Source: an uncultured Chitinophagaceae bacterium
Lineage (GTDB): Bacteria; Bacteroidota; Ignavibacteria; Kapaibacteriales; UBA961
DNA length: 64,000 nt
NCBI GenBank assembly: GCA_964527785.1
Contig: CAZGNO010000004.1
Coordinates: 14,364 to 78,363, forward strand
Reading direction: 5' to 3'
How positions within the stretch are numbered: position 1 is the stretch's first letter; each line of letters opens with the position of its first letter. The position numbers and the translations under genes were made by a program. The notes beneath the pieces are model-generated. The model made no database searches. It was not told the origin of the DNA and was given only the letters and a program-made list of their open reading frames with translations. Positions 25,507 through 60,629 of this stretch are shown in pieces.

Positions 25507-25603
25507 GGTAAGCGGCTGATTACAAGTCTTTCCAATGTAATTTTCAGTAACAACACCTATTCACCCAGTAGTGAAAAGTTACTTTACAAAGGGAAGTCAC
25601 ATT

Positions 25604-26596
25604 ATGAAGCAAATTTCGGTATTCTGTTTATATCTCTGTATTGTGTGCATTTTTACTATTGGATGCACCCAAACCGACAGAAAAGAATTGTCTCACTACA
25701 CCATACACAGCCCTTCTGATTCATCACAAAAAATTTCTTATGACACTGCATCTATCCCGCCGGGACCTGAACGTGAATTTATTATTTACGGACGGGAATT
25801 ATTTATTAATACACATCTTTACCTCGGTCCAAAAGGGACAGTTAAGCAAATTACCGGCAATGAAATGGACTGCAAGAACTGCCACATGGAAAACGGCACA
25901 AAGCCATTCGGACAGCCGCTTATTACTGTATCGGGACGGTATCCTCAATACAGAGCGAGGGAAGCAACAATTCTTACTATTCAAGACCGTGTGAATAATT
26001 GCCTCGAACGCCCGCTACTCGGTAAGCATCTTGAATTCGACAGTAAGGAAATGAAAGCGTTCGTAATGTATCTCAAATGGATTTGGGATAAGAACAATAA
26101 TGTTATCAAAGCAACAGGTGACCTGCCAAATACAATACCATGGCTAGATAGGAAAGCTGACTGGAACAAAGGGAAGGTTGATTATGAGCAATTTTGCGCA
26201 CGATGTCACGGAATTGACGGGCAAGGTATTAAAGCACCGGGAGGATATGGCTACACCTATCCACCCGTTTGGGGAAAATACTCATATGCAATTGGTTCAA
26301 GTATGCATAGAGTTGGGAAATTAGCTGCTTTTATTCGTAATAATATGCCGTTTGATATGGATACCACCCATATACGTGTTACCAATGAACAGGCATACGA
26401 TATTGCTGCATATATAAATAACGAGACTGTTAACCCACGCCCCAATTTCAATGAGGGGGAGATGCTGTACCCTCATATTGAAGATAAATCCACCGATTAC
26501 CCTATCGGTCCGTATACAGACACATTCTCTCAAGACCAACACAAATATGGTCCGTTCAAACCAATAGAAGCATATTGGAAAGAGCGTAAAAAATAG
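25604..26596 (+). CDS. Dihaem c-type cytochrome lipoprotein, TsdA-like (thiosulfate dehydrogenase family), paralog 1
   Basis: Lipobox FTIGC|TQ. Two CxxCH motifs (CKNCH and CARCH) are spaced about 110 residues apart, as in TsdA. A Cys follows about 39 residues after the first haem His (NNC), where TsdA has its Cys haem ligand. The protein is 75-80% identical to the next gene. Confidence 0.55.
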   Translation: MKQISVFCLYLCIVCIFTIGCTQTDRKELSHYTIHSPSDSSQKISYDTASIPPGPEREFIIYGRELFINTHLYLGPKGTVKQITGNEMDCKNCHMENGTKPFGQPLITVSGRYPQYRAREATILTIQDRVNNCLERPLLGKHLEFDSKEMKAFVMYLKWIWDKNNNVIKATGDLPNTIPWLDRKADWNKGKVDYEQFCARCHGIDGQGIKAPGGYGYTYPPVWGKYSYAIGSSMHRVGKLAAFIRNNMPFDMDTTHIRVTNEQAYDIAAYINNETVNPRPNFNEGEMLYPHIEDKSTDYPIGPYTDTFSQDQHKYGPFKPIEAYWKERKK

Positions 26597-26705
26597 TTTT
26601 AATGATTTGTGAACTATAAGGATGCAGAATATTCACTTGTATCCTTACAGTCATATCTTGATTTCTCAAACTAAAAAGGAGTCCATAATGAGAAAGGAGT
26701 ACATA

Positions 26706-27710
26706 ATGAAAAAAGCCATTTCGCTTATTACTGTATCTATCGGGATTTTATCCATCGGTTTTGTTTGTTTGAGTATTACCGGATGCAACAGAAACGATTC
26801 CGGTGAAACACAATCAATCCCCCAAAATGCAACTGATTCAATATCGGTAGTTTATGATACAGCTTCAATTCCGCAGGGACCTGAACGAGAGTTTATACTT
26901 TTGGGGCGAGAACTGTTTATGAATACACATACTCTGATAGGTCCCAAAGGAACAATTGCACAAATTACCGGCAATGAAATGGATTGCCAGAATTGTCATT
27001 TTGAAGGTGGGACACGACCGTTTGGACAACCACTTGTTACAGTATCGGGTCGGTATCCTCAATACAGAGGAAGAGAAGGTACAATCCTTACAGTGGAAGA
27101 CAGGATAAATAATTGTTTGGATAGACCGCTTCTCGGCAAACATTTACCGTTCGACAGCAGAGAGATGCACGCTTTTACAATGTATTTCAAATGGATTTGG
27201 GATATGAACAAGAATGTATTGAAGGTAAATGGTGATCTTCCCAATACATTACCATGGCTCAACAGAAAAGCCGATTGGAAACAGGGTAAGATTGACTATG
27301 ATCAATACTGCGCTCGCTGTCATGGAATAGATGGCGAAGGAATTAAAACTCCAAGCGGCTATGGATATACTTATCCTCCGGTGTGGGGTTCACATTCCTA
27401 TGCTATCGGCTCAAGTATGCACCGTGTAGGAAAATTAGCTGCCTTTATCCGTAATAATATGCCCAATGATATGAACATCACCCATATTCGTGTAACTAAT
27501 GAACAGGCGTATGATATCGCTGCATATATCAATAACGAAACAGTAAATTCCCGACCTGATTTTCACGAAGAAGGTGTGCTCTTTCCTCGAACCGCAGATA
27601 AACCCGTTGATTACCCCTTTCCACCGTATGCGGATACATTCTCACAAGACCAGCATAAATTCGGTCCGTTCAAACCAATTGAGGATTATTGGAAGAATCG
27701 CAAGAAATAA
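26706..27710 (+). CDS. Dihaem c-type cytochrome lipoprotein, TsdA-like, paralog 2
   Basis: Lipobox SITGC|NR. The CQNCH and CARCH motifs and the long conserved blocks (GRYPQYR, YPPVWG, HRVGKLAAFIRNNMP) are shared with paralog 1. Confidence 0.55.
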   Translation: MKKAISLITVSIGILSIGFVCLSITGCNRNDSGETQSIPQNATDSISVVYDTASIPQGPEREFILLGRELFMNTHTLIGPKGTIAQITGNEMDCQNCHFEGGTRPFGQPLVTVSGRYPQYRGREGTILTVEDRINNCLDRPLLGKHLPFDSREMHAFTMYFKWIWDMNKNVLKVNGDLPNTLPWLNRKADWKQGKIDYDQYCARCHGIDGEGIKTPSGYGYTYPPVWGSHSYAIGSSMHRVGKLAAFIRNNMPNDMNITHIRVTNEQAYDIAAYINNETVNSRPDFHEEGVLFPRTADKPVDYPFPPYADTFSQDQHKFGPFKPIEDYWKNRKK

Positions 27711-38285: not shown

Positions 38286-38945
38286 CTACATTTTTTCGTC
38301 AGAAGAAGCCGCCTCGCCTACTATTTTACCAAGAATTTCCTTGATAATATCCCACGAAAAGCCCTGGCGTTGCAAGTAGCCGATGAGTGCGGTTTTCTGT
38401 TTCTCGAGCGGTTTATGCTGCACGGAACGAAGTTTCTTTTCGGCGGCTTTGAGGGCAAGTTCGGTCGTATCGTCTTTGGGGAAAAATTGGTGGATTGCTT
38501 CTTGAGCTTGAAGTTCAGGTATGCCACGTTTGCGGAGCTCCATTTTTACCCGGCTAGCCGACGACGGCTTTCTTAGCAAAAAGTCCTTAACGAACATTCT
38601 GGCATATTCAGTATCATTCAGATAATCGAATTCTTTGAGATATTGAATTGCGGTATCTTGCTCATAGATTGATGCTCCGAATTCCTGCAATTTACGTCGA
38701 ACCTGAAATTCCGTTCGGGGTTTGTAGCTTGCAAATGCTACTGCACGCTGCTTTACATCAATGATATGTTGACGGGCAAGTATAGTTTTTTTCAGTTCGT
38801 CCGTGAGAAGTACTCCCTTTCCCAATTTGAATTCCAATACCAAATCCATCGAGCATTCGAGGGCAATGTCATCACCCGCAAAAACTATGCACAGCGGCTT
38901 TCGCCGACGTTTTAGGATTCGGGTAATTAGTAGTGGCTCAGGCAT
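38286..38945 (-). CDS. recX: Regulatory protein RecX
   Basis: Three-repeat helical RecX architecture (..ALKAAEKKLRS.., ..ALIGYLQRQGFSWDIIKEIL) immediately downstream of recA on the same strand. Confidence 0.7.
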   Translation of the reverse strand: MPEPLLITRILKRRRKPLCIVFAGDDIALECSMDLVLEFKLGKGVLLTDELKKTILARQHIIDVKQRAVAFASYKPRTEFQVRRKLQEFGASIYEQDTAIQYLKEFDYLNDTEYARMFVKDFLLRKPSSASRVKMELRKRGIPELQAQEAIHQFFPKDDTTELALKAAEKKLRSVQHKPLEKQKTALIGYLQRQGFSWDIIKEILGKIVGEAASSDEKM

Positions 38946-39007
38946 AATCGTGTTAATAAAAATTGCATATGACAATTTTTTGTATGTGTGGTTTTAATCC
39001 CCTCGTT

Positions 39008-39302: not shown

Positions 39303-40367
39303 TTATTTTTTAGATGGTTTTTCTGCCGACGGTTCGGGAGTGGTAGTAATATTCAGTACTTTCTTCACATCGTTTTCGAGTGCTGTGAACATTGCCGGAG
39401 AATCAATGAGTTGCCTGCGCAGACCATCACGACCTTGAACTCTGTCTTCTTTGTATGTCAGCCACGAACCGCTTTTTTGGACGATTCCATGCTCAATCGC
39501 CACATCAAGCATATCACCTACTTTAGAAATACCTTCATTGTACATAATATCAAATTCGGTTTCTCTGAACGGCGGGGCTACTTTATTCTTTACTATTTTC
39601 ACTTTCACTCTGTTACCTACAATATCCGCACCTTCTTTAATAGCATCTTTTCGGCGAATATCAATCCGCACCGAGGCGTAATATTTCAGAGCATTACCAC
39701 CTGTGGTCGTTTCAGGATTACCATACACGACACCAATTTTGCTCCGAAGTTGATTTGTAAAAATAACGCACGTATTCGAGCGTCCGATTGCCGCATTGAG
39801 CTTACGCATACCCTGTGACATAAGCCGCGCCTGCGAACCCATCTGAGCGTCGCCCATATCACCCTCGATTTCTGCACGCGGAGTAAGTGCAGCTACCGAG
39901 TCAATAACAACCACATCAATCGCATTGCTTCGTACAAGTGTTTCCACTATTTCAAGTGCTTGCTCGCCGAATTCCGGCTGAGAAAGAAGCAAATTATTCA
40001 AATCAACACCTAAACGCTGTGCATATTGAACGTCAAGCGCATGCTCTGTATCCACGAAAGCAGCCAATCCGCCATTTTTTTGTGCATTTGCAATAATATG
40101 TAAGCAGACTGTCGTTTTACCGGATGATTCCGGTCCGTATATTTCAATAATCCTGCCTTTTGGCACACCGCCGATACCTAAAATCGCATCAAAAGAAAGA
40201 GAGCCCGTCGAAATTGAATCTATCGCAATCACATTTTGGTCGGAAAGGCGCATAATCGAGCCCTTGCCATATTGCTTTTCGATTTGCTCCATAGCATTTT
40301 CAGCAGCTTTCATTTTAGCATCACTGACTTTCATCGAATTGGTTTTTACGTCGTTAGACATACTCAT
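39303..40367 (-). CDS. recA: Recombinase RecA
   Basis: Walker A motif GPESSGKTT and the motif [14 protein letters not shown]. The protein is near-full-length (354 aa) and canonical. Confidence 0.97.
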
Positions 40368-40524
40368 TGTTCCCTAAAGATTTGAAAAATAAAAGAATAA
40401 CTTTATGTAACTGTTCTAATTTACTATTTTATCAGCGCAGACCAATCAAAAATTCCGTTTCTTAATTTCTACTCGTTCGTCATTCAAAAAAATCTCGTAT
40501 ATTTGCCGTATCAGATAATTGTAT

Positions 40525-40697
40525 GGTGCTTTTGCCCGTGTCCAAACGGCAAAAGAGAATAGGGAATCCTGTGAAAATCGGGAACGGTTGCGCCGCTGTA
40601 ACGGATGACGCGCTCTTTTACCCCAAAAGCCACTGCCAAAAGGCGGGAAGGCACAAAATAAAAGAGCAAGGATGATTCCGAAGTCAGAAGACCTGCC
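40525..40697 (+). ncRNA. Cobalamin (B12) riboswitch
   Basis: + strand: GGTGC..AAGAGAATAGGGAATCCTGTGAAAATCGGGAACGGTTGCGCCGCTGTAACGG...GCCACTG..GGGAAGGC...AAGTCAGAAGACCTGCC. This matches the conserved AAnAGGGAA, GGTGAAAnTCC, CCGC.CTGTAA, GCCACTG, GGGAAGG and B12-box AGYCAGGAGACCTGCC blocks in the correct order. The listed ORFs 40446..40751(-) and 40511..40702(-) are rejected. Confidence 0.8.
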
Positions 40698-40940
40698 TGC
40701 AATTCTCATCGTTCTATCGCCTGTGTTCAATAGTGAATACAGTATAGACATCCGCGCAAACGGATGTGTGATGAGGAAATGTGTTTTTTATCGCACCCAA
40801 AGTGTGACTTCCTTTCTGCATTTCCCCATCGTTGCGTCTTAACTCTCGGCGCATTTGCTTTATCATATTACAAAAATACAAGCAATGACTGACAACAGTA
40901 TGTCAGTTACTTTTTTTATTTTCTTTTAAGGGAAATGTTT

Positions 40941-42302
40941 ATGAATTATTTTTCTTTGTTGCGGAAATTTACCGCTCTCACTTTCTTCATCGCAGGGCTA
41001 GCTTCCAACCTTTCAGCCCAATCAATTATTACTGTTGGCACACAGCCGCTTTCCATTATTCCCGCAGGGAACACCGTTCATATATTTTGCAACGGCGACG
41101 ACAAGAATTACAATTCTATTTATGAGCCGGACAGCGGAGAAGTTGCGGCTTCATGGTGGATTCTTGATGCACAAACTCAAACAGTTCTCAAACACCGTGA
41201 ATTTACCGATAGATACCTCCCTTTTCCTCTACGAGTGGGAATTGGGTATGATACACTCTATATGGGCACAGGCAACCGCGTCAGTACCTTCAATGTCAAT
41301 ACCCAAGAAATGATACAGGATAAATATATTGTTCTTCCTGATTCTCTTGGCTTTATTCATGCAATTACGGCAGAAGAATTGGATGATGCTCATCAAGTTG
41401 GTGTAGCTATTTCTTGTATAAAAGATTATACAAATCCGGGATATTTAGCAGCATCAATAAATGGAGAAATTCTACTGGTTCTGAATACCCTCATCTCTCC
41501 TCAACAGGCAATTACCTACATTAGCCCTATTGATAGCAACGGAGCTGTGGCTGTTCTCTGCGAAGGAACGTATGGCGTAGGAAACTCTTACCTTCAACTC
41601 TTTGTTAAACAAGACAGTGCAGCAGTTAATATTTCAGTAGGAGATGGTGGCAATCATATTTTCTATGAAGGCACAGGGCATGATTCAATGTATGTTACGT
41701 CTAACGGCACACACAAGGTTTTGATTGTGGATTTGAAAAAATTAAGTGCCGTTAAATCCATCTCAGTAGGTACTACAGGTTTTAATGGTCCCCGTGAATC
41801 AGCCCTCATTGGAAACAAACTTTTTGTTACAACATACGATAGTGATGTAAGAGAATTTAATATCGAAACGGGTGAGTTGGTTGCAACTCTGGACTCCAAA
41901 GGGAAACCCGAAGGGCTAACCGTAATAAACGGTAAATTGTGGGTAGCAAATGCTTATAAAAGTAAAAGCTATGAAGCAGGAAATACTATTGCTGTTTTCG
42001 ATTCCCCTCTTGCAGTAGAAGAATATTTTACTGAGAATAAAAATATAGTATTCCCAAATCCAGCGCAATCTTCTACAACAATCTCCACTACATTCAGCGG
42101 GCAAGCAAATATACCCGTTCAAGTAGAAGTGTATTCATTGACCGGTACGAAATTACTTTCAGTGAATACTGTAACCGGAAATAATGGTGAAGTAAATTAC
42201 ACACTTCCGATTCAAGAGTATAATCTGACTTCCGGTACGTATTTTATCCGCCTTTCGGCAGGACATAAAGTGCAGACTTCGCGGCTGACAGTTGTGGAAT
42301 AA
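40941..42302 (+). CDS. Secreted YVTN/YncE-type beta-propeller protein with a T9SS (Por) C-terminal sorting domain
   Basis: Signal peptide (..LSAQ|S) and repeated ..VG..P..I......(K)(L)(Y/F)V(T/A)N.. beta-propeller blades. The last ~80 aa (..FPNPAQSSTTISTT......VYSLTGTKLLSVN........SGTYFIRLSAGHKVQTSRLTVVE) match a T9SS C-terminal domain. The gene lies downstream of the B12 riboswitch on the same strand. Confidence 0.65.
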   Translation: MNYFSLLRKFTALTFFIAGLASNLSAQSIITVGTQPLSIIPAGNTVHIFCNGDDKNYNSIYEPDSGEVAASWWILDAQTQTVLKHREFTDRYLPFPLRVGIGYDTLYMGTGNRVSTFNVNTQEMIQDKYIVLPDSLGFIHAITAEELDDAHQVGVAISCIKDYTNPGYLAASINGEILLVLNTLISPQQAITYISPIDSNGAVAVLCEGTYGVGNSYLQLFVKQDSAAVNISVGDGGNHIFYEGTGHDSMYVTSNGTHKVLIVDLKKLSAVKSISVGTTGFNGPRESALIGNKLFVTTYDSDVREFNIETGELVATLDSKGKPEGLTVINGKLWVANAYKSKSYEAGNTIAVFDSPLAVEEYFTENKNIVFPNPAQSSTTISTTFSGQANIPVQVEVYSLTGTKLLSVNTVTGNNGEVNYTLPIQEYNLTSGTYFIRLSAGHKVQTSRLTVVE

Positions 42303-42599: not shown

Positions 42600-42821
42600 A
42601 TGAGAACCTACCAAGTTGAATTACTTGAACCGAAAGCTGAAAAACTTTTGGATGAATTGGCAAACTTGAAACTAATCAGGGTTCAAGAAGTGATTGCCCC
42701 CAAGCAAGAGTTTAAGGAACTGTTAGCAAAAATACGCGAGAAAAAAACTAAAAAACCAACTTTAGATGAAATTGCAGATGAAGTTGAGTTAGTTAGAATG
42801 GAACGCTATGCGAAAAGCTAG
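42600..42821 (+). CDS. Putative antitoxin partner of the PIN toxin
   Basis: A 73-aa highly charged helical protein overlaps the PIN gene by 14 bp. Its family was not recognised. Confidence 0.4.
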   Translation: MRTYQVELLEPKAEKLLDELANLKLIRVQEVIAPKQEFKELLAKIREKKTKKPTLDEIADEVELVRMERYAKS

Positions 42822-43233
42822 AAAATTCAGAATAATTCTTGATACTAACCTATGGATAAGTTTTTTAATCTCCAAAAGACTGAAAAAGATAGATACTTTG
42901 TTCCATCAGGATAATATTATACTCATCTTCAGTGAAGAACTTTTAGAAGAATTTATTACGGTAGCCCAAAGACCAAAATTCAATAAATATTTTTCAGATA
43001 AAGATCTGGAGAACATACTTAACTTGTTTGATGTTTTTGGTGAACTGATAAAAGTGACCTCTGTTGTCGAAGTTTGTAGAGACGAAAAAGACAACTTTTT
43101 ACTAGCGTTAGCCAAAGACGGTAATGTAGATTTCTTGATAACCGGTGACGATGATTTGCTTTCTATCAATATCTTTGAAAATACCACTATTTTGAATTAC
43201 AAAAAATTTGAACTAGAAGTGCAAACAGAGTAG
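42808..43233 (+). CDS. PIN-domain toxin (PIN_3 / TIGR00305-type) of a type II toxin-antitoxin system
   Basis: FRIILDTNLWISFL (first acidic PIN residue), ..FSEELLEEF..V..RPKF, and ..DEKDNFLLALAKDGNVDFLITGDDDLL. Confidence 0.8.
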   Translation: MRKARKFRIILDTNLWISFLISKRLKKIDTLFHQDNIILIFSEELLEEFITVAQRPKFNKYFSDKDLENILNLFDVFGELIKVTSVVEVCRDEKDNFLLALAKDGNVDFLITGDDDLLSINIFENTTILNYKKFELEVQTE

Positions 43234-43402: not shown

Positions 43403-45610
43403 TCAATCACATCCGTGCATAATTGCAACGGTAATTCTGCGGTTCTTTGTTCGGATAGATTCCAAGTCGGCTGCAGGCATTCTCTTGAGTGCCTTGCCTG
43501 TTGGTTCTTTTATGTTTGGTCGGTTAGAAGAATATCCTACCGTACCGGCAATCGCACTTGGATCCACACCTTGTTTAATTAACCATGTACGAACGGCATC
43601 AGCACGATGTTGTGACAGCGGAACATTTATTTTATCTCCGCCTTCTTTCGAAGTATGTCCTTCAATCATCACTTTGAGTTTTTCACATTGCTTTACATAA
43701 GCAAGCAATTTTGCAAGTGCAGGTGCTGTTCCCGGTTCTTTAAAGTTAAATTCGGCAGTTCCCACTATGAATAATATTTCTGGGAAATCTGTTTTTGTAC
43801 CGACTTTAGGAGGTTCAGGGCATCCGTTCTTATTAGGTTCGGCACTGTTTGCTTTGCCGGCTATAAGCGGACAGAAGTCCACATCATCACGAACGCTGTC
43901 GTCGTCAGTATCGGCTTTCAAAGGATTGGTTGGTTCCATACTGACACCGTCTCTCTTGCTTTTACGGTTTACTTCATCTCCATCGGATAATGAATCACCG
44001 TCGGTATCTGCTTTGAGAGCATTAGTTCTATATTTATTCACTTCGTCACCGTCAGTCAAACCGTCTGCATCCGTATCGGGTTTTAGAGCATCGGTTCTAT
44101 ATTTATTCAGCTCTTCACCGTCTTTCAGACCGTCTGCATCCGTATCGGCTTTAAATGGATCTGTTTTATGTTTATTGACCTCATCGCCGTCCTTGAGTTC
44201 GTCTGTATCTGTATCATCCGAAAGTGGATTCGTTTTATATTTATGAACCTCTTCACCATCTTGTAAGATGTCGCCGTCTGTATCTACAATTGCAGGATTG
44301 GTATTGTATTGCTTTACTTCATCACCGTCATTCAAAGCATCGCCATCACTGTCAAGTTTTGTAGGGTTGGTCTTATATTGCTTCACTTCGTCCCCATCGC
44401 GCAAGCCGTCAGTATCTGTATCGGCAATTGCAGGATTGGTATTCGTATCATTAATCTCATTTCCGTCATTCAGTCCGTCGGTGTCGGTATCGGCAAGAGC
44501 CGGATTGGTATTGTATTTCGTGACCTCGTCGCCGTCATTCAAACTGTCTTCGTCGCTGTCTGCTTTGAGAGGATCAGTTTTGTATTTGTTAACTTCATCT
44601 CCGTCAAGAAGAGTATCACGGTCTGTATCCGCCAGCACCGGATTAGTTTTCCGAACGATTTCTTCGCCGTCTTTGAGTCCGTCAGTATCACTGTCGGGAA
44701 GTGTTGGATTTGTATTGTATTTGAATACTTCCTCGTAATCATTTAGATTATCGGCATCAGTATCCGGTTTGAGAGGATTAGAATAATATGTAAATACCTC
44801 TTGACCATCTGTAAGACCGTCGCCATCGGTATCGGGGTTATTCTCATCTGTGCCGATTTCGCGTTCTCTGGAATTAGTTACGCCATCATTATCATAGTCG
44901 GCATTGCCGAATACATAATAGGTAAACCCACCTCCAAACGTCATAAACATATCATTGCCGTCGGATGCCTTACCGTCAATGGTCGGGTCATAACCGTCCA
45001 ACCACGGAGTTCCGGTCATACGGATGGTAGCTCTGCCGTTAAAAACAAAATCATCGGTCAAATACATTTCAAAACCGGCTCCGAACGGGAACATGATTGC
45101 TCTTTTTTCATACGTATTACCATCGTTGAGAGGTAATGCTTTTCCGTCTTCATACGTAGGATTCCAGTCGGTGATTCCTACCCCGCCAAAAATAAACGGT
45201 ACAAACTTTTCACTGGGAATAATATTCCATGAAAGAAATGTTTCATAGGTACTAACCCTAGCGAAACTCTTTTCGTGCGGAGCATCAAATCCATTTTTAC
45301 CGAATCTTCCATAAAATTCGGGGTATTTTTGCTGCATTACATCCGTGTTTTTATACCGCAGTTGCGCCCATCCCATGCTTGCTTGGAGCGATATTTGATT
45401 AATAATATTCCAGCGAGCAAACAAATCTCCGCCAAACCATATTTGGTTGTCCGTAAAAGTTCCCCAATACTTCATACCGCCACCGGTAAAACCAAAACCT
45501 ACACGACCACCTTCGCTTTGAGCGAGAAGCGTATTGTTACCTGCAATCCCCATTGTCATAACTATCATTATTGCAAGTAATCTGTTTCGAAAAGCCATTA
45601 TAGCTTTCAT
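43403..45610 (-). CDS. OmpA-family outer-membrane protein with thrombospondin type 3 (calcium-binding) repeats, paralog A
   Basis: Signal peptide, an N-terminal OmpA-like beta-barrel, about 14 tandem D.D.DG..D..E TSP3 repeats (e.g. DTDGDGLTDGQE) and a C-terminal OmpA peptidoglycan-binding domain (..TVGYSSNRPN..GKALKRM..RITVAIMHGCD). Confidence 0.85.
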   Translation of the reverse strand: MKAIMAFRNRLLAIMIVMTMGIAGNNTLLAQSEGGRVGFGFTGGGMKYWGTFTDNQIWFGGDLFARWNIINQISLQASMGWAQLRYKNTDVMQQKYPEFYGRFGKNGFDAPHEKSFARVSTYETFLSWNIIPSEKFVPFIFGGVGITDWNPTYEDGKALPLNDGNTYEKRAIMFPFGAGFEMYLTDDFVFNGRATIRMTGTPWLDGYDPTIDGKASDGNDMFMTFGGGFTYYVFGNADYDNDGVTNSREREIGTDENNPDTDGDGLTDGQEVFTYYSNPLKPDTDADNLNDYEEVFKYNTNPTLPDSDTDGLKDGEEIVRKTNPVLADTDRDTLLDGDEVNKYKTDPLKADSDEDSLNDGDEVTKYNTNPALADTDTDGLNDGNEINDTNTNPAIADTDTDGLRDGDEVKQYKTNPTKLDSDGDALNDGDEVKQYNTNPAIVDTDGDILQDGEEVHKYKTNPLSDDTDTDELKDGDEVNKHKTDPFKADTDADGLKDGEELNKYRTDALKPDTDADGLTDGDEVNKYRTNALKADTDGDSLSDGDEVNRKSKRDGVSMEPTNPLKADTDDDSVRDDVDFCPLIAGKANSAEPNKNGCPEPPKVGTKTDFPEILFIVGTAEFNFKEPGTAPALAKLLAYVKQCEKLKVMIEGHTSKEGGDKINVPLSQHRADAVRTWLIKQGVDPSAIAGTVGYSSNRPNIKEPTGKALKRMPAADLESIRTKNRRITVAIMHGCD

Positions 45611-45992
45611 AGAGCCTCCAATACTATAATTATACAAAAACTATATCCGTTTTATGTAGAAAAGGATATTTTAATTTTTTTAAGAATTAATGTTTTTTGT
45701 TTGATTTATATGTATTTCTTTGCTTTGCCCGATGCTTTTCTCTTTCTTTGCAGATTGTCGTAGTTTATAGTTCCATTATATTGTTACATATATTATTGAA
45801 AAACGGATTGATGAAGATTACTGGGTATATATTTGAATTTATTATTGAAAAATTTAGTTTGTTTAAAATATAGTACGAATTATTGTCAGGTATGTTTCAA
45901 TTAAAAAGTTCTCTCTAGAATCTTTGTAAAGTCTATGGTAAAATTAATAATTAGAAAGAGCAATAGAAACAAAATAATTGCTCAAAACAAAT

Positions 45993-46056: not shown

Positions 46057-48270
46057 TTAATCACATCCATGCTGTACAGAGACGGTTATCCGTCTGTTCT
46101 TCGAGCGGATTTCATCAATCTGTTTTTTGGTCATTTTCTTTAATGCTTTGCCGGTAGGTTCTTTTACTGTAGGGCGTGTTGCTGCATAGCCGATAGACCC
46201 TGCTATCTTCTCCGATTTCACTCCCTGCTTAACGAGCCAGTCTTTCACTGCGTCGGCACGCATTTGCGAAAGCTCTTGGTTCTTCTTCGGATTGCCTTCT
46301 GATGATGTATGCCCTTCGAGCATTACCTGAAGTTTTTCACATTGTTGTACATAAGCAAGTAGTTTTGCAAGTGCTCCTGCTGTTCCGGGTTCATCAAAAT
46401 TGAAGTTATTTGTTCCCACTTTGAATAATATTTCAGGGAAGTCAGTCTTCGTACCAATTTTGGGCGGCTCAGGACAACCGTTTTTCGTTTTGTCATCATT
46501 TTGCTTTCCGGCGATGAGCGGGCAGTAATCCACATCGTCACGCACACTGTCGCTATCCGAGTCGGGGCTAAGCGGATTAGTTGGTTCAGGGCTGACACCA
46601 TCCTTTTTGCTCTTACGGTTTACTTCGTCACCGTCGCTTAAAGTATCACCGTCAGTATCAGATTTAAGTGGGTCAGTTTTGTACTGAGACAGTTCATCCC
46701 CGTCTTTGAGTCCGTCAGCGTCTGTATCCGGTTTAAGCAGGTCGGTTTTATATTGTGTTACTTCGTCACCGTCTTTGAGTCCGTCTGCGTCTGTATCTGC
46801 TTTGAGAGGATCAGATTTATATTGATTTATTTCGTCGCCGTCCTTTAGTCTGTCTTGGTCAGAATCATCCGAAAGTGCATTTGTTTTATATTTCCGCAGC
46901 TCATCACCATCGCTTATGCTATCGCCGTCACTATCCTGTTTAAGAGGGTCGGTTGAGTACTGTTTTACTTCATCACCGTCATTTATACCGTCTCCATCGG
47001 TATCAGGTTTCATCGGGTCGGTTTTGTACTGTTTCAGCTCGTCACCGTCACGCAAGCCGTCGCCGTCCGTATCGGTAAGCGTAGGGTTCGTTTTGGTAGT
47101 ATTGACTTCTTCACCGTCGGAAATTCCATCATTATCAGTATCGGCAGTTACAGGGTTAGTATTATATTTCTTTCCTTCATCGCCGTCATTCAAGCCGTCA
47201 CCATCTGAATCCGGTTTCATCGGGTCGGTTTTGTATTTGCTCACTTCCTCTCCGTCGAGCAAGCCGTCGCCGTCTGTATCGGGGTTTAACGGATTTGTTT
47301 TGCGAACTAATTCTTCCCCGTCGTTAAGACCGTCACTGTCGGTGTCAGCACGAGTCGCTTGTGTTTTATGCTTAAATATTTCATCGTAATCGGTAAGATT
47401 ATCGCCGTCGGTATCAGCTTTAAGAGGATTTGTAAAGTAGGTAAACACTTCCTGCCCGTCCGTAAGACCGTCACCGTCTGAATCAGGGTTATTTTGATCT
47501 GTGCCTAGTTCACGTTCACGTGAATTAGTCACACCATCATTGTCGTAATCGGCATTGCCGAAGACGTAATAGGTAAAACCCGCTCCGAATGTCATGAAAA
47601 TATCATCACCGTCTGCTGCTTTTTTATCATGAACAGGATCATAGCCGTCCAGCCATGATGTTCCGGTCATCCGAACAGTTCCCCGTCCGTTGAAAACAAA
47701 ATCATCCGTCAGATACATTTCAAATCCTGCACCAAACGGAAACATGACTTTCTGTTTCTCGTATGTAGTACCGTTATTGAGCGGTAATGCTTTGCCGTCG
47801 TCGTATGTAGGATTCCAGTTTGTAATCCCTACACCGCCAAAAACATACGGGACAAATTTCTCTTTCGGAAGAATATTCCATGATAAGAATGCCTCATACG
47901 TACTGATTCTTGAAAAACTCTTTTCGTGAGGTTTGTCAAATCCATTTTGTCCAAAAAGCCCGTAAAACTCAGGATGTTGTGCTTGAATTTCCGGAGTATT
48001 TTTGTATCGGAGTTGCGCCCAGCCCGCTCCTGCCTGAAGTGATATTTGATTAATAATGTTCCATCGAACAAACAAATCTCCGCCAAACCATAATTGATTA
48101 TCTGTAAATGTTCCCCAATATTTCACGCCACCGCCGTTGAAACCAAATCCGATACGCCCGCCTTCGCTTTGAGCGACTGCGTTCGAGCTGACGGCAAATC
48201 CCATTGCGAGCACAATTATTATTGCAAGAAATCTGTTACGAAGCATCTCTACCGTAGTACATACCTTCAT
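46057..48270 (-). CDS. OmpA-family outer-membrane protein with thrombospondin type 3 repeats, paralog B
   Basis: Same architecture as 43403..45610 with long identical stretches (QSEGGR.GFGF.GGG.KYWGTFTDNQ.WFGGDLF.RWNIINQISLQA). The start could be 48270 or 48246. Confidence 0.85.
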   Translation of the reverse strand: MKVCTTVEMLRNRFLAIIIVLAMGFAVSSNAVAQSEGGRIGFGFNGGGVKYWGTFTDNQLWFGGDLFVRWNIINQISLQAGAGWAQLRYKNTPEIQAQHPEFYGLFGQNGFDKPHEKSFSRISTYEAFLSWNILPKEKFVPYVFGGVGITNWNPTYDDGKALPLNNGTTYEKQKVMFPFGAGFEMYLTDDFVFNGRGTVRMTGTSWLDGYDPVHDKKAADGDDIFMTFGAGFTYYVFGNADYDNDGVTNSRERELGTDQNNPDSDGDGLTDGQEVFTYFTNPLKADTDGDNLTDYDEIFKHKTQATRADTDSDGLNDGEELVRKTNPLNPDTDGDGLLDGEEVSKYKTDPMKPDSDGDGLNDGDEGKKYNTNPVTADTDNDGISDGEEVNTTKTNPTLTDTDGDGLRDGDELKQYKTDPMKPDTDGDGINDGDEVKQYSTDPLKQDSDGDSISDGDELRKYKTNALSDDSDQDRLKDGDEINQYKSDPLKADTDADGLKDGDEVTQYKTDLLKPDTDADGLKDGDELSQYKTDPLKSDTDGDTLSDGDEVNRKSKKDGVSPEPTNPLSPDSDSDSVRDDVDYCPLIAGKQNDDKTKNGCPEPPKIGTKTDFPEILFKVGTNNFNFDEPGTAGALAKLLAYVQQCEKLQVMLEGHTSSEGNPKKNQELSQMRADAVKDWLVKQGVKSEKIAGSIGYAATRPTVKEPTGKALKKMTKKQIDEIRSKNRRITVSVQHGCD

Positions 48271-58270: not shown

Positions 58271-58777
58271 ATGAAAACCATTCTTAACAACCCAATTCTA
58301 GCCCTTGCGGTTCGTTTGCTGCTTGGAGGTATTTTCATTTTTGCAGCATTGGATAAAATTGCCGAACCGGATGCCTTTGCCAAATCTATCGGCAACTATC
58401 ATATTATTCCAAATGCTGCATTGAATCTTATGGCACTTACAATGCCGTGGATTGAGCTCCTCGCCGGAATATTTTTGGTAATCGGTGTTCGTATCCGCGC
58501 ATCATCGGCACTTATTTCGGGAATGCTGATAGTATTTATTATTGCAATTATCTCGGCAATTCTAAGGGGTTATAATATCAATTGCGGCTGTTTTGCACAA
58601 ACATCACAGGGTGCTGCCACGAAAGCATCACAAGTTGGATGGATGAAAGTTCTTGAAGATACTGCTATGCTAGCCGGTGCACTGTATCTCTATTTTTTTC
58701 CAAACAAGCAATATACATTCGATTCGCTTGCAGCTAATGACGAAGTTTCTTCTCAAAATGCAAGCATTGCACACTAA
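58271..58777 (+). CDS. DoxX/MauE-family membrane protein
   Basis: Four transmembrane segments, ..LRLLLGGIFIFAALDK.. and the conserved NCGCF motif. Confidence 0.7.
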   Translation: MKTILNNPILALAVRLLLGGIFIFAALDKIAEPDAFAKSIGNYHIIPNAALNLMALTMPWIELLAGIFLVIGVRIRASSALISGMLIVFIIAIISAILRGYNINCGCFAQTSQGAATKASQVGWMKVLEDTAMLAGALYLYFFPNKQYTFDSLAANDEVSSQNASIAH

Positions 58778-58805
58778 ATTCTTATTTCTGAACTATACTT
58801 TGTCC

Positions 58806-60629
58806 ATGACCAAACTCCCTTTTAATGAACGTCTCGGAAAATCCCCGCTTGTAACTGACGGCTCTATTGCCATCGAACTCCAAAAACGCGGCTGCAATGA
58901 ACTCCCGACAGATCTTTATAATCTCAAAAATCCCGTTGTTCTCGAAAATATTTACCGCGAATTTCTCAACGCCGGGGCTGAACTCCTCAAAACAAATACC
59001 CAACACGCAAACCGCCTCGCGCTAGAAAAATTCGGACTCTCCGATAAAGTATATGAGATAAACCGAAAAGGAGTATGGATTGCTCGAACGGTATCCCTTC
59101 ACAAAGGATATGTAGCAGGAGTTGTAGGACCCACAGGGCGATTCTTCAAGCCAATAGGCACACTCACCGACAGTGAAGCAAAAGAGGTCTTTATCGAGCA
59201 AATAATCGCATTGCTCGATGGCGGGGCAGAAGTCTTGATGCTCAAGTCGTTTGTAGATATACATGAACTTGAAATTGCAATCGAAGCGGCTCAATTTGTT
59301 ACGAGCGACATTCCTATTATTGCGCTAAAGGCATTTCCAGAAGACGGAAGTGTACTCGCCACCTCGTTTCCAGCCGATATTGCCCGAGCCCTTGAAAGCC
59401 ATAACCTTGCGGCATTTGGTGCAAGCTCTACCGTCGGACCGAACAGGATGCTTGATATTATCAAATCCATAAACGGTACAAATGTTCCGCTCTGTTCACT
59501 TCCCGATATTGCAATCCCAACACTTGTGGACGGCAGAGCCAATTACAATGCCGAGCCGGATTACGTAGCAAGAGTAGCTCTCAAACTTGTTCAGGCAGGA
59601 GTATCAATTATCGGTGCTGATGGCGGAGCAAGCGTCGAACACATCAAAGAAATTGCCTCAATTGTCAAGAACGTAATAATCAGTGAAGCAAAAATTCCAC
59701 CCAAAGCGCCTAAGATTGTCCCTTCGTTCGAGAATCAACCTGATGAGCGCTCTGAATTTGAGCGGAACATCGGCTCTAAATTCATGGCAACGGTCGAGGT
59801 GGAAATACCGCGCGGATTGGATATGCAACCCGTTATAACGACAGCCCAATTCCTAAAAGATAATGGAATAGATGCTGTAAATGTTTTCGATGGTGCGCGG
59901 GCAAGAGTGAGGATTTCACCTATTGCAATTTCGCATCTGATTCAGTCGCAAGTGGGAATTGAATGTATCACTCATTTGGCTTGTCGCGACAGGAATATGG
60001 TTGGGCTTCAATCGGATTTAATCGGCGGCTATGCCCTCGGTTTGCGCAATATTCTCGCCATTACGGGAGACCCGACAAGTATCGGCGATTATCCGAATGC
60101 TACAAGTGTATATGACGTTGATTCGATTGGTCTGGTGCGAACCATTAACCGAATGAACAGCGGTAATGACTTGATGGGTAATACGTTAGGCAAGCCCACA
60201 CAATTCTCGATAAGCTGCGCTTGTAATCCTGGTACAGATGATTTGGAACGCGAAGTTCGCCGTCTTGAATTAAAAGCTGAAGAAGGTGCAAAAATTGTAT
60301 TCTCGCAACCGATTTTTGAACTAAAGACACTCGAAACCTTTCTTAATAAGACACAGCATCTCAAATTGCACTTTATGCTGGGTATTATTCCTCTGCGAAC
60401 TGCGCGTCATGCCGAGTTTCTTCATTATGAAGTGCCGGGTATGGTAGTCCCGGCATGGGTACGCGCCCGTATGAATGCTTCATCCGGAAATGTAGAAAAA
60501 TCAATGCACGAAGGTATGACAATTGCAGTAGAATTTCTGCGCGAAGCTAAACACTTGGTGAGCGGTGTCTATATCATGCCACCGGCAAAAAAATATCAAA
60601 TGGCTATCGAAATGCTTGGGTTACTATAA
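58806..60629 (+). CDS. YitJ-like fusion of a homocysteine S-methyltransferase-like domain and methylenetetrahydrofolate reductase (MetF). The homocysteine domain appears degenerate.
   Basis: The N-terminal ~300 aa align to the Pfam S-methyl_trans (MetH/BHMT homocysteine-binding) fold. The positions of all three zinc-ligand cysteines are substituted: ..FGASSTVGP where MetH has ..GLNCALGP, and ..IIGADGGASVEHI where MetH has ..IVGGCCGTTPQHI. The C-terminal ~300 aa form a canonical MTHFR TIM barrel. Confidence 0.75.
   Translation: MTKLPFNERLGKSPLVTDGSIAIELQKRGCNELPTDLYNLKNPVVLENIYREFLNAGAELLKTNTQHANRLALEKFGLSDKVYEINRKGVWIARTVSLHKGYVAGVVGPTGRFFKPIGTLTDSEAKEVFIEQIIALLDGGAEVLMLKSFVDIHELEIAIEAAQFVTSDIPIIALKAFPEDGSVLATSFPADIARALESHNLAAFGASSTVGPNRMLDIIKSINGTNVPLCSLPDIAIPTLVDGRANYNAEPDYVARVALKLVQAGVSIIGADGGASVEHIKEIASIVKNVIISEAKIPPKAPKIVPSFENQPDERSEFERNIGSKFMATVEVEIPRGLDMQPVITTAQFLKDNGIDAVNVFDGARARVRISPIAISHLIQSQVGIECITHLACRDRNMVGLQSDLIGGYALGLRNILAITGDPTSIGDYPNATSVYDVDSIGLVRTINRMNSGNDLMGNTLGKPTQFSISCACNPGTDDLEREVRRLELKAEEGAKIVFSQPIFELKTLETFLNKTQHLKLHFMLGIIPLRTARHAEFLHYEVPGMVVPAWVRARMNASSGNVEKSMHEGMTIAVEFLREAKHLVSGVYIMPPAKKYQMAIEMLGLL

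Follow-up and report, generated by a model that had tools for sequence, protein, structure and literature searches.

A cobalamin riboswitch upstream of a predicted circularly permuted homologue of BtuG with a type IX secretion signal

What does a cobalamin (vitamin B12) riboswitch control when the gene behind it encodes a secreted beta-propeller protein and no B12 transporter is encoded nearby? The locus lies in a 64 kb stretch (64,000 nucleotides, nt) of contig CAZGNO010000004.1 from an uncultured bacterium (assembly GCA_964527785.1). We call this whole stretch the window, and all coordinates are window positions. B12 is a keystone micronutrient, and most microbes must scavenge it. Judged by sequence, the propeller is a circularly permuted homologue of BtuG, the B12-binding protein of Bacteroides thetaiotaomicron (BT1490/BtuG1, BT1954/BtuG2 and BT2095/BtuG3; DUF5074). 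The gene product is probably a B12-repressed corrinoid-capture protein of the BtuG family that is exported by the type IX secretion system (T9SS) and supplies a BtuB receptor encoded elsewhere in the genome. Corrinoid binding, export by this system, transfer to BtuB and the workings of the switch are the parts of this reading that we infer.

The homology was found with an alignment profile of 15 relatives (A1), searched against the sequences of solved structures in the Protein Data Bank (PDB). The best matches are entries for BtuG1 (8BLW_B, 8PTD and 8PTF; E 3e-21 to 1e-20). BtuG2 and the B. uniformis homologue are matched at about 6e-9 (8BMX, 8BMY, 8BN0 and 3DSM), with the archaeal YVTN protein 1L0Q alongside BtuG2 (5e-9), and BtuG3 at 6e-5 to about 7e-5 (8OKV, 8P97 and 8PUJ). 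PDB codes are assigned to BtuG proteins as published (PMC10404256; preprint 10.1101/2024.02.16.580637). YncE reached E 0.96 in the same search, against 3e-21 for BtuG1. The order is not collinear, since the N-terminal half of BtuG is matched by family positions 199-355 and its C-terminal half by positions 19-198.

Rotations of BtuG1 in steps of 10 residues were each scored against A2, a profile of the propeller alone. Native BtuG1 matches A2 as two swapped pieces (63 and 14 bits). After rotation by 170 residues it gives a single end-to-end match (A2 positions 2-322, 90.8 bits), from which we conclude that the two are related by circular permutation. For the reciprocal comparison, a canonical-order profile was built from BtuG1 and six canonical BtuG lipoproteins from related loci. 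This profile matches the window protein in swapped order. It also gives one full-length match across the junction of a relative with two propellers in tandem (P0031, residues 190-516, 116.9 bits), which is the arrangement expected of an intermediate in a duplication-truncation route. Swapped halves as an artefact of internal blade repeats were considered and rejected, because the match coordinates track the rotation exactly, an end-to-end match arises in one register only and the reciprocal profile mirrors the result. The original prediction, made without database searches, had proposed a BtuG-like extracellular binder with another export route. The relationship is stronger than proposed, in that the protein is a permuted sequence homologue of BtuG1, BtuG2 and BtuG3.

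The open reading frame (ORF) downstream of the aptamer spans 40935-42302. ATG 40941 is the start that aligns across relatives, and public assemblies hold the identical 453-amino-acid (aa) protein (P0001). Residues are numbered here from ATG 40935 (455 aa). The N-terminus reads MNYFSLLRKFTALTFFIAGLASNLSA followed by QS and is free of Cys, so there is no lipobox. Propeller residues ~29-198 correspond to the C-terminal half of BtuG and residues ~199-355 to the N-terminal half. An AlphaFold2 model (mean predicted local distance difference test score 82.7) places 28 strands in residues 24-356, forming seven four-stranded blades, and a C-terminal beta-sandwich after the propeller. The sorting domain covers residues ~370-452 of 455. 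It scores 39.5 bits with Por_Secre_tail PF18962 (cut-off 27, residues 372-452) and 44.5 bits with TIGR04183 (cut-off 23), and the profile search of the PDB matched the solved T9SS sorting domains 8GLJ_D and 8GLK_D by sequence. Pfam and NCBIfam scans of the protein and 15 relatives returned the sorting domain, with DUF5074 and other propellers below threshold. Database labels for family proteins say merely 'T9SS sorting domain-containing protein'. The protein is predicted to be T9SS cargo. It had been described at the outset as a signal-peptide protein with YVTN/YncE-type blades and a T9SS tail, and the signal read from the translation, the YVTN and YncE-type propellers that are its top neighbours by structure and by sequence, and the two sorting-domain models all bear this out, as does the AlphaFold2 model for a seven-bladed propeller.

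Residues that contact cobalamin in BtuG2 and BtuG1 are listed in the literature (PMC10404256; preprint 10.1101/2024.02.16.580637). Rotated BtuG1 and the available BtuG2 segments (residues 47-146 and 208-354; contacts W149, W194 and S195 lie outside this mapping) were aligned to the family profile, and conservation was counted over 148 family domains (Table 1). The contact-equivalent positions are enriched in the top 10% of conserved columns (6 of 14, hypergeometric p = 0.001; Mann-Whitney p = 2e-4). Corrinoid binding is strongly suggested.

The family also has a very conserved loop of its own at residues 52-74 (nt ~41088-41156), with C52, G54, D56, N58, Y59, N60, D66, G68, E69 and W74. At this place BtuG1 and BtuG2 have a shorter, different loop, which contacts B12 in BtuG1. 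The family loop could alter corrinoid specificity or bind a metal.

Gene context was compared across relatives. Loci came from exact-protein look-ups and from scanning GTDB species representatives, which gave 32 loci; 39 loci are non-identical. Most of their records carry the label Candidatus Kapaibacterium, Ignavibacteria or Bacteroidota, some apparently wrongly; NCBI taxonomy places Kapaibacterium within Bacteroidota. In 37 of the 39, the gene is directly preceded on its own strand by RF00174, the Rfam cobalamin riboswitch, with proteins down to ~26% identity and differing neighbours. A gene for a TonB-dependent, BtuB-like receptor follows immediately in 17 of the 39, often with overlapping stop and start codons. 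Four of these receptors were scanned, and each has TIGR01779 (TonB-B12) as its best NCBIfam model, below the equivalog cut-off. The gene stands alone in 19 loci, including the window and all close relatives (46-69% identity; recA-recX synteny), and contig ends cut three loci. Association of the family with B12 riboswitches or btuB, which the original prediction had raised, is thus seen on both counts. The same prediction called the gene stand-alone; this is true of the window and its clade and is not a property of the family. Two distant members, at L041 4722-8167 and L042 4353-7696, lie directly upstream of a BtuB-like receptor.

These data bear on a different kind of function, in which the protein does not bind corrinoids and is a secreted YncE/YVTN-type enzyme or adhesin needed only under B12 scarcity, perhaps for the release or processing of a B12 precursor or of some other nutrient. 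The link to the riboswitch would in that case reflect regulation and not the ligand. We regard this as very unlikely. Homology to three experimentally proven B12 binders extends over the full propeller, the conserved positions coincide with residues that hydrogen-bond B12, and the adjoining receptors in the 17 loci, where scanned, best fit the B12-receptor model.

Six loci (L007, L024, L026, L032, L038 and L039) also encode a canonical BtuG in the same gene cluster. These BtuGs have a lipobox Cys and a direct (C/N)EG(L/I/V)W start and are collinear with BtuG1 (E 1e-16 to 1e-33). Where an operon encodes both, the permuted protein is therefore a distinct, additional paralogue and not a re-anchored BtuG, and its role is therefore at least partly different from that of the BtuG lid. 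In at least 11 loci, within the sequence available, the permuted protein is the sole propeller beside BtuB.

A word-indexed search for further members found 15 clusters. An exhaustive HMMER search with the propeller profile against 1.84 billion cluster representatives (50% identity clusters) found 200 clusters at E <1e-30, 917 at <1e-10 and 5964 at <1e-3. The best 150 matches are of the permuted form because all of them are collinear with the window protein. Among the 146 of these that were new, 96 (about two-thirds) have a recognisable T9SS sorting domain and 40 (about a quarter) are double propellers of 740-830 aa, with the tandem placed before the sorting domain. Four others are permuted propellers of ~360 aa that have a lipobox Cys and no sorting domain (P0056, P0058, P0060 and P0066). 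Permutation and export route are separable, because such permuted lipoproteins exist. The double propellers (for example P0011, P0016, P0018-P0020 and P0031; loci L005/L023, L019, L022, L029 and L039) resemble the duplicated stage expected on the route to permutation, and each would have two binding sites.

Where the exported protein acts is less clear-cut, and here a rival deserves weight. The sorting domain may be cleaved and the propeller released as a soluble 'corrinophore', which would diffuse and return corrinoids to BtuB/BtuG or withhold B12 from competitors. Several features speak for release. About half of the loci, the window included, have the gene on its own; the canonical BtuG lid lipoprotein is also encoded in six loci, which suggests an outer, non-lid role; the protein lacks the N-terminal lipid anchor and linker that form the BtuG hinge on BtuB; and double propellers, which would have two sites per molecule, account for about a quarter of the family. 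Against release, Porphyromonas cargo with a type-A sorting domain often becomes bound to the cell surface again via anionic lipopolysaccharide, and the position as sole propeller beside BtuB in at least 11 loci is equally consistent with a lid-like partner. On balance we consider a released corrinophore rather unlikely. The broader proposal that environmental Bacteroidota (Kapaibacteria, Ignavibacteria) release a free, high-affinity T9SS corrinophore, sometimes duplicated, as a haemophore- or siderophore-like public or competitive B12 good, which would scavenge B12 and related corrinoids far from the cell for BtuB or BtuG-BtuB, with a permuted topology derived from a tandem double propeller that the family still contains, is similarly doubtful. 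For the BtuG-family capture protein that we prefer, the absence of a lipid anchor and the co-occurrence with canonical BtuG favour an outer capture or shuttle role. If the protein is attached to the surface at all, the attachment would be C-terminal and would follow removal of the sorting domain by cleavage. Where a locus has no second propeller, the protein may be a lid that hinges differently.

The riboswitch is the sole Rfam match at the gathering threshold in the window. The original prediction called it an unambiguous plus-strand cobalamin riboswitch, and its score of 90.5 bits against a gathering score of 31.5 bits agrees. The aptamer start given then, 40525, was 19 nt too far in; the RF00174 match begins at 40506. 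The riboswitch does lie upstream of the gene as stated, at a measured gap of 226 nt from the aptamer 3' end to ATG 40941 and not 240 nt. The motif TAnnTTTG, the Bacteroides-type -7 promoter consensus of Bacteroidota, is fitted by TATATTTG, whose last base is the first base of the aptamer. Among 35 family loci, 23 have the motif between -60 and +9 relative to the aptamer start, compared with 3.8% of randomly drawn 70-nt windows of these loci. The motif abuts the aptamer 5' end here, and its frequency at this place argues for a transcription start upstream of the aptamer.

Between aptamer and gene, the leader holds four further elements (Table 1), which were compared in eight related leaders. 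The P13-like hairpin shows one compensatory change in its stem, a U-A pair in five leaders and C-G in three. Its loop CGCAAA (40755-40760) is complementary to L5 UUGCG, which is invariant in the same eight leaders. An L5-L13 kissing loop is an established feature of cobalamin riboswitches, and the hairpin is a candidate L13 partner of L5. The long stem downstream of it pairs GAUGAGGAAAUG with CAUUUCCCCAUC. RNAalifold gives 12 stem pairs, all retained in the eight sequences, with changes from G-C to G-U only. This stem is part of the minimum-free-energy fold, and the leader has z = -5.8 relative to shuffled sequence. Read from the sequence, its 3' strand is also complementary to GGGAAAUG by the start codon, and GAUGAG in its 5' strand to CUCAUC (40706-40711) at the aptamer 3' edge. 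These alternative pairings may take part in switching. Neither the P13-like hairpin nor the long stem was in the original prediction, and both probably belong to the switch.

The terminator-like stem-loop is nearly invariant in the eight leaders, whose proteins are 46-69% identical, and its U-tract ends ~20 nt upstream of the start codon. A purine-rich GGGGAA/GGGAAA run stands at the position of a ribosome-binding site (RBS) in seven of the eight leaders, and GGGAAAUG is the putative RBS here. A hairpin with a U-tract had been proposed as the expression platform. The element is present and conserved, and its role as the platform stays conjectural, covariation being absent. Taken together, the leader features fit an OFF switch that acts through termination and/or translation initiation. 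This mechanism remains a model because the evidence, one stem pair aside, is conservation rather than covariation.

The same hairpin could instead terminate the leader constitutively and yield a small RNA derived from the riboswitch, with the propeller gene served by its own promoter. A strong, invariant terminator-like element does lie between aptamer and RBS, and a sigma-70-like match is found at 40839-40866. The aptamer and the gene nevertheless remain linked and co-oriented in 37 of 39 loci, down to ~26% identity, and the gap from the U-tract to the ATG is only ~20 nt. Sigma-70-like matches number 8 against 6.9 expected in shuffled sequence, and Bacteroidota are not known to use the sigma-70 consensus. 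We therefore hold a riboswitch that does not control the gene to be the least probable of the alternatives, and highly improbable.

Under control by the riboswitch, the preferred reading would run as follows. At low intracellular B12, the leader would permit expression. The protein would cross the outer membrane by means of its C-terminal sorting domain and then be attached to the cell surface or released. Corrinoids would bind in a central pocket on one face of the propeller, with a residue set as in BtuG, and would be handed to the TonB-dependent receptor BtuB, which would be encoded outside the window here and is encoded by the next gene in many relatives. When B12 is replete, the ligand-bound aptamer would turn the gene off. 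The likely route would be that the kissing-loop hairpin redirects the conserved stem, so that the terminator-like hairpin and/or RBS occlusion is favoured.

Several observations weigh against this reading. DUF5074, the Pfam family that contains BtuG, misses the protein at its gathering score; it is sub-threshold in 3 of 15 members, while the score of BtuG1 itself is 49.6 (cut-off 27.2). The window protein thus shows neither the collinear domain order of BtuG nor DUF5074 membership. Fold searches place generic propellers (YncE, WD40) ahead of BtuG. Two or three contacts are not conserved, including BtuG2 Y316 (H142 here) and BtuG1 R244 (N53 here). Because of these and the family-specific loop, the pocket is probably similar to that of BtuG and not identical. 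A canonical BtuG shares the operon with the permuted protein in six loci. L041 and L042, the weakest family matches and with the receptor next door, lack RF00174 even at E 0.01; they may form a sub-family with a different ligand or regulation. The terminator-like hairpin is conserved in the eight leaders without covariation. BtuB, BtuFCD and canonical BtuG were not found among the window ORFs scanned, and a search of the protein database for the partner receptor, with a profile of eight locus-linked receptors and matches sought on the same long contigs, did not find the BtuB of this organism or of the stand-alone clade.

Two candidates from that search, P0233 and P0215, were rejected as partner receptors; they belong to other contexts or organisms. 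P0215 is part of a BtuB-X-DUF5074 module without a riboswitch. In L046 (10001-14092, GCA_046595995.1), a receptor, an unknown protein and a canonical BtuG-like DUF5074 protein lie next to a nos (nitrous-oxide reductase) cluster, and both the permuted gene and the riboswitch are absent from this module. A conserved gene of ~285-295 aa with no Pfam match lies between the BtuB-like receptor and the canonical BtuG in Kapaibacteria/Ignavibacteria loci (L007 8271-9128 and L046 12066-12953, with similar gaps in L026, L032 and L038). Its product may be another component of the uptake system. Other sorting-domain proteins are present in related contigs.

The neighbourhood in the window was surveyed by a Pfam scan of ORFs of at least 150 aa, excluding those inside an annotated gene on the opposite strand. 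It found no TonB-dependent receptor, BtuFCD-type gene, cobalamin biosynthesis gene or B12-dependent enzyme, and the BtuB-like receptor profile has zero matches among window ORFs of at least 80 aa. The locus is therefore free of transporter and B12 genes within these scans, as first reported, and the neighbours named then, recA on the opposite strand and a toxin-antitoxin islet, are also confirmed by the Pfam scan. A homocysteine S-methyltransferase/MTHFR fusion (58677-60629, +) was rejected as a sign of B12 use because a B12-binding domain is absent from the fusion and the ORFs that follow. ORFs over the aptamer (40446-40751, -; 40523-40675, +; 40672-40842, +) are regarded as spurious because they are positioned over conserved RNA structure. 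The opposite-strand ORF over the riboswitch is called as an 87-aa gene in a public assembly (L047 506-769, -), almost certainly spuriously.

Downstream, the PIN_3 toxin gene and a 73-aa ORF form a typical toxin-antitoxin pair. The pair is missing from the syntenic L001 and L003, where ppk comes after the propeller gene. Beyond it, the two ~740-aa paralogues carry many bacterial thrombospondin type-3 (TSP3) repeats, a Binary_toxB-type calcium-binding domain and a C-terminal OmpA domain, and one of them also has an N-terminal outer-membrane beta-barrel. Elsewhere in the window, two adjoining paralogous genes encode SoxA/TsdA-type dihaem cytochromes c (thiosulfate dehydrogenase-like; 25571-27710, +).

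Table 1. Features of the locus, in window positions, followed by residues of the protein (numbered from ATG 40935) equivalent to BtuG corrinoid contacts
Feature	Position	Strand	Basis or remark
recX	38286-38975	-	Pfam scan
recA	39303-40367	-	Pfam scan
-7-like promoter motif, TATATTTG	40499-40506	+	fits TAnnTTTG; last base is first aptamer base
Cobalamin riboswitch aptamer RF00174	40506-40714	+	cmscan 90.5 bits, E 4e-21, full model 1-189
Loop L5 (UUGCG)	40588-40592	+	read off RF00174 alignment
B12 box GCCACTG	40629-40635	+	read off RF00174 alignment
P13-like hairpin CAUCCG-CGCAAA-CGGAUG	40749-40766	+	kept in 8 related leaders
Long conserved stem, GAUGAGGAAAUG (40770-40781) with CAUUUCCCCAUC (40819-40830)	40770-40830	+	RNAalifold
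Terminator-like hairpin and U-tract	40886-40919	+	stem-loop 40886-40909, T-run 40911-40917; terminator scan
Purine-rich RBS-like motif, GGGAAAUG	40930-40937	+	just 5' of ATG 40941
Coding sequence, predicted permuted BtuG-like protein	40941-42302	+	453 aa; alternative ATG 40935 gives 455 aa; ORF list
Sec signal peptide	40941-41018	+	signal-peptidase-I type site between LSA and QS; read from translation
Seven-bladed beta-propeller, permuted relative to BtuG	41019-42014	+	AlphaFold2 model, profile and rotation tests
Type-A T9SS C-terminal sorting domain	42048-42299	+	PF18962, TIGR04183
PIN_3 toxin gene	42808-43233	+	start overlapped by 73-aa ORF; pair spans 42600-43233
Two paralogous ~740-aa proteins	43403-45637, 46057-48270	-	Pfam scan
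BtuG2 E55, G56, F58	E210, G211, Y213		E 112/148, G 138/148, F or Y 125/148
BtuG2 Q93	N240		N 129/148
BtuG2 N107	N257		N 128/148
BtuG2 R133 / BtuG1 R141	R287		R 141/148
BtuG2 Q219	Q37		Q 94/148
BtuG2 W272	F97		F or Y 92/148
BtuG1 E249	D66		D or E 133/148
BtuG1 Y290	Y109		Y or F 121/148

BtuG has been studied mainly in gut Bacteroides, as a lipoprotein lid (PMC6143338). This locus shows a second architecture of a BtuG-type binder, which differs in blade order and predicted export route and whose gene is often unlinked from btuB. Its family, sizeable and unannotated, probably consists of extracellular B12 binders of environmental Bacteroidota. Full-text searches over part of the journals found BtuG tied in no paper to type IX secretion, circular permutation, Kapaibacteria or Ignavibacteria, and a cobalamin riboswitch in none to T9SS cargo, co-mentions of T9SS being in unrelated contexts. 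If binding is true, B12 uptake genes become annotatable in many environmental genomes, and the secretion of dedicated bacterial B12 carriers becomes a directly testable question. The family would also offer a natural circular permutation of a propeller whose duplicated intermediate is still extant. The finding extends B12-uptake biology in a clear and testable way and provides a clean natural example of a permuted propeller.

Among known systems, the sequence similarity of E. coli YncE to this family is far weaker than that of BtuG1, and neither YncE nor the archaeal YVTN propellers (3VGZ, 1L0Q) are known to have a link to B12. Haemophores such as HasA are secreted high-affinity binders that serve a TonB-dependent receptor. 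If the window protein is released, it would be a functional analogue of a HasA-type haemophore, with no relationship in sequence or fold. The proposed role, a riboswitch-controlled extracellular binder that feeds BtuG-BtuB, is closer to the 'extracellular relay' of BtuH and other DUF4465 proteins, BtuJ and BtuK. In Bacteroides, such accessory surface B12 binders pass corrinoids to BtuG-BtuB (PMC13616437; PMC8941943), and a 2026 review of this relay mentions neither T9SS nor DUF5074 (PMC13616437). Unlike the window protein, the relay proteins have unrelated folds, with no homology seen, and are lipoproteins or vesicle cargo, not T9SS cargo.

The nearest comparison is BtuG itself, a femtomolar to picomolar corrinoid binder that forms a complex with BtuB. 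Both proteins are seven-bladed propellers with homology over all blades, conserved equivalents of corrinoid-contact residues, a B12 riboswitch and, in many relatives, an adjacent btuB, and both occur in Bacteroidota in the broad sense. BtuG proteins are described as surface lipoproteins exclusive to Bacteroidetes, with a lipobox Cys followed by a lipoprotein export signal (Wexler et al., PMC6143338). The window protein has neither, and carries a signal-peptidase-I signal and a T9SS type-A domain instead. Canonical BtuG acts as a 'pedal-bin' lid on BtuB, hinged by its N-terminal lipid anchor and linker (PMC10404256); the permuted protein lacks that anchor, and its chain termini are shifted by about half a propeller. 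The blade order of the family is permuted by about that much. The permuted gene is also often stand-alone, and tandem double propellers make up about a quarter of the listed members. What is known already is the fold family, the ligand site and the regulation, and no new principle is involved; what is new here, compared with BtuG, is the topology, the predicted export route and the gene organisation.

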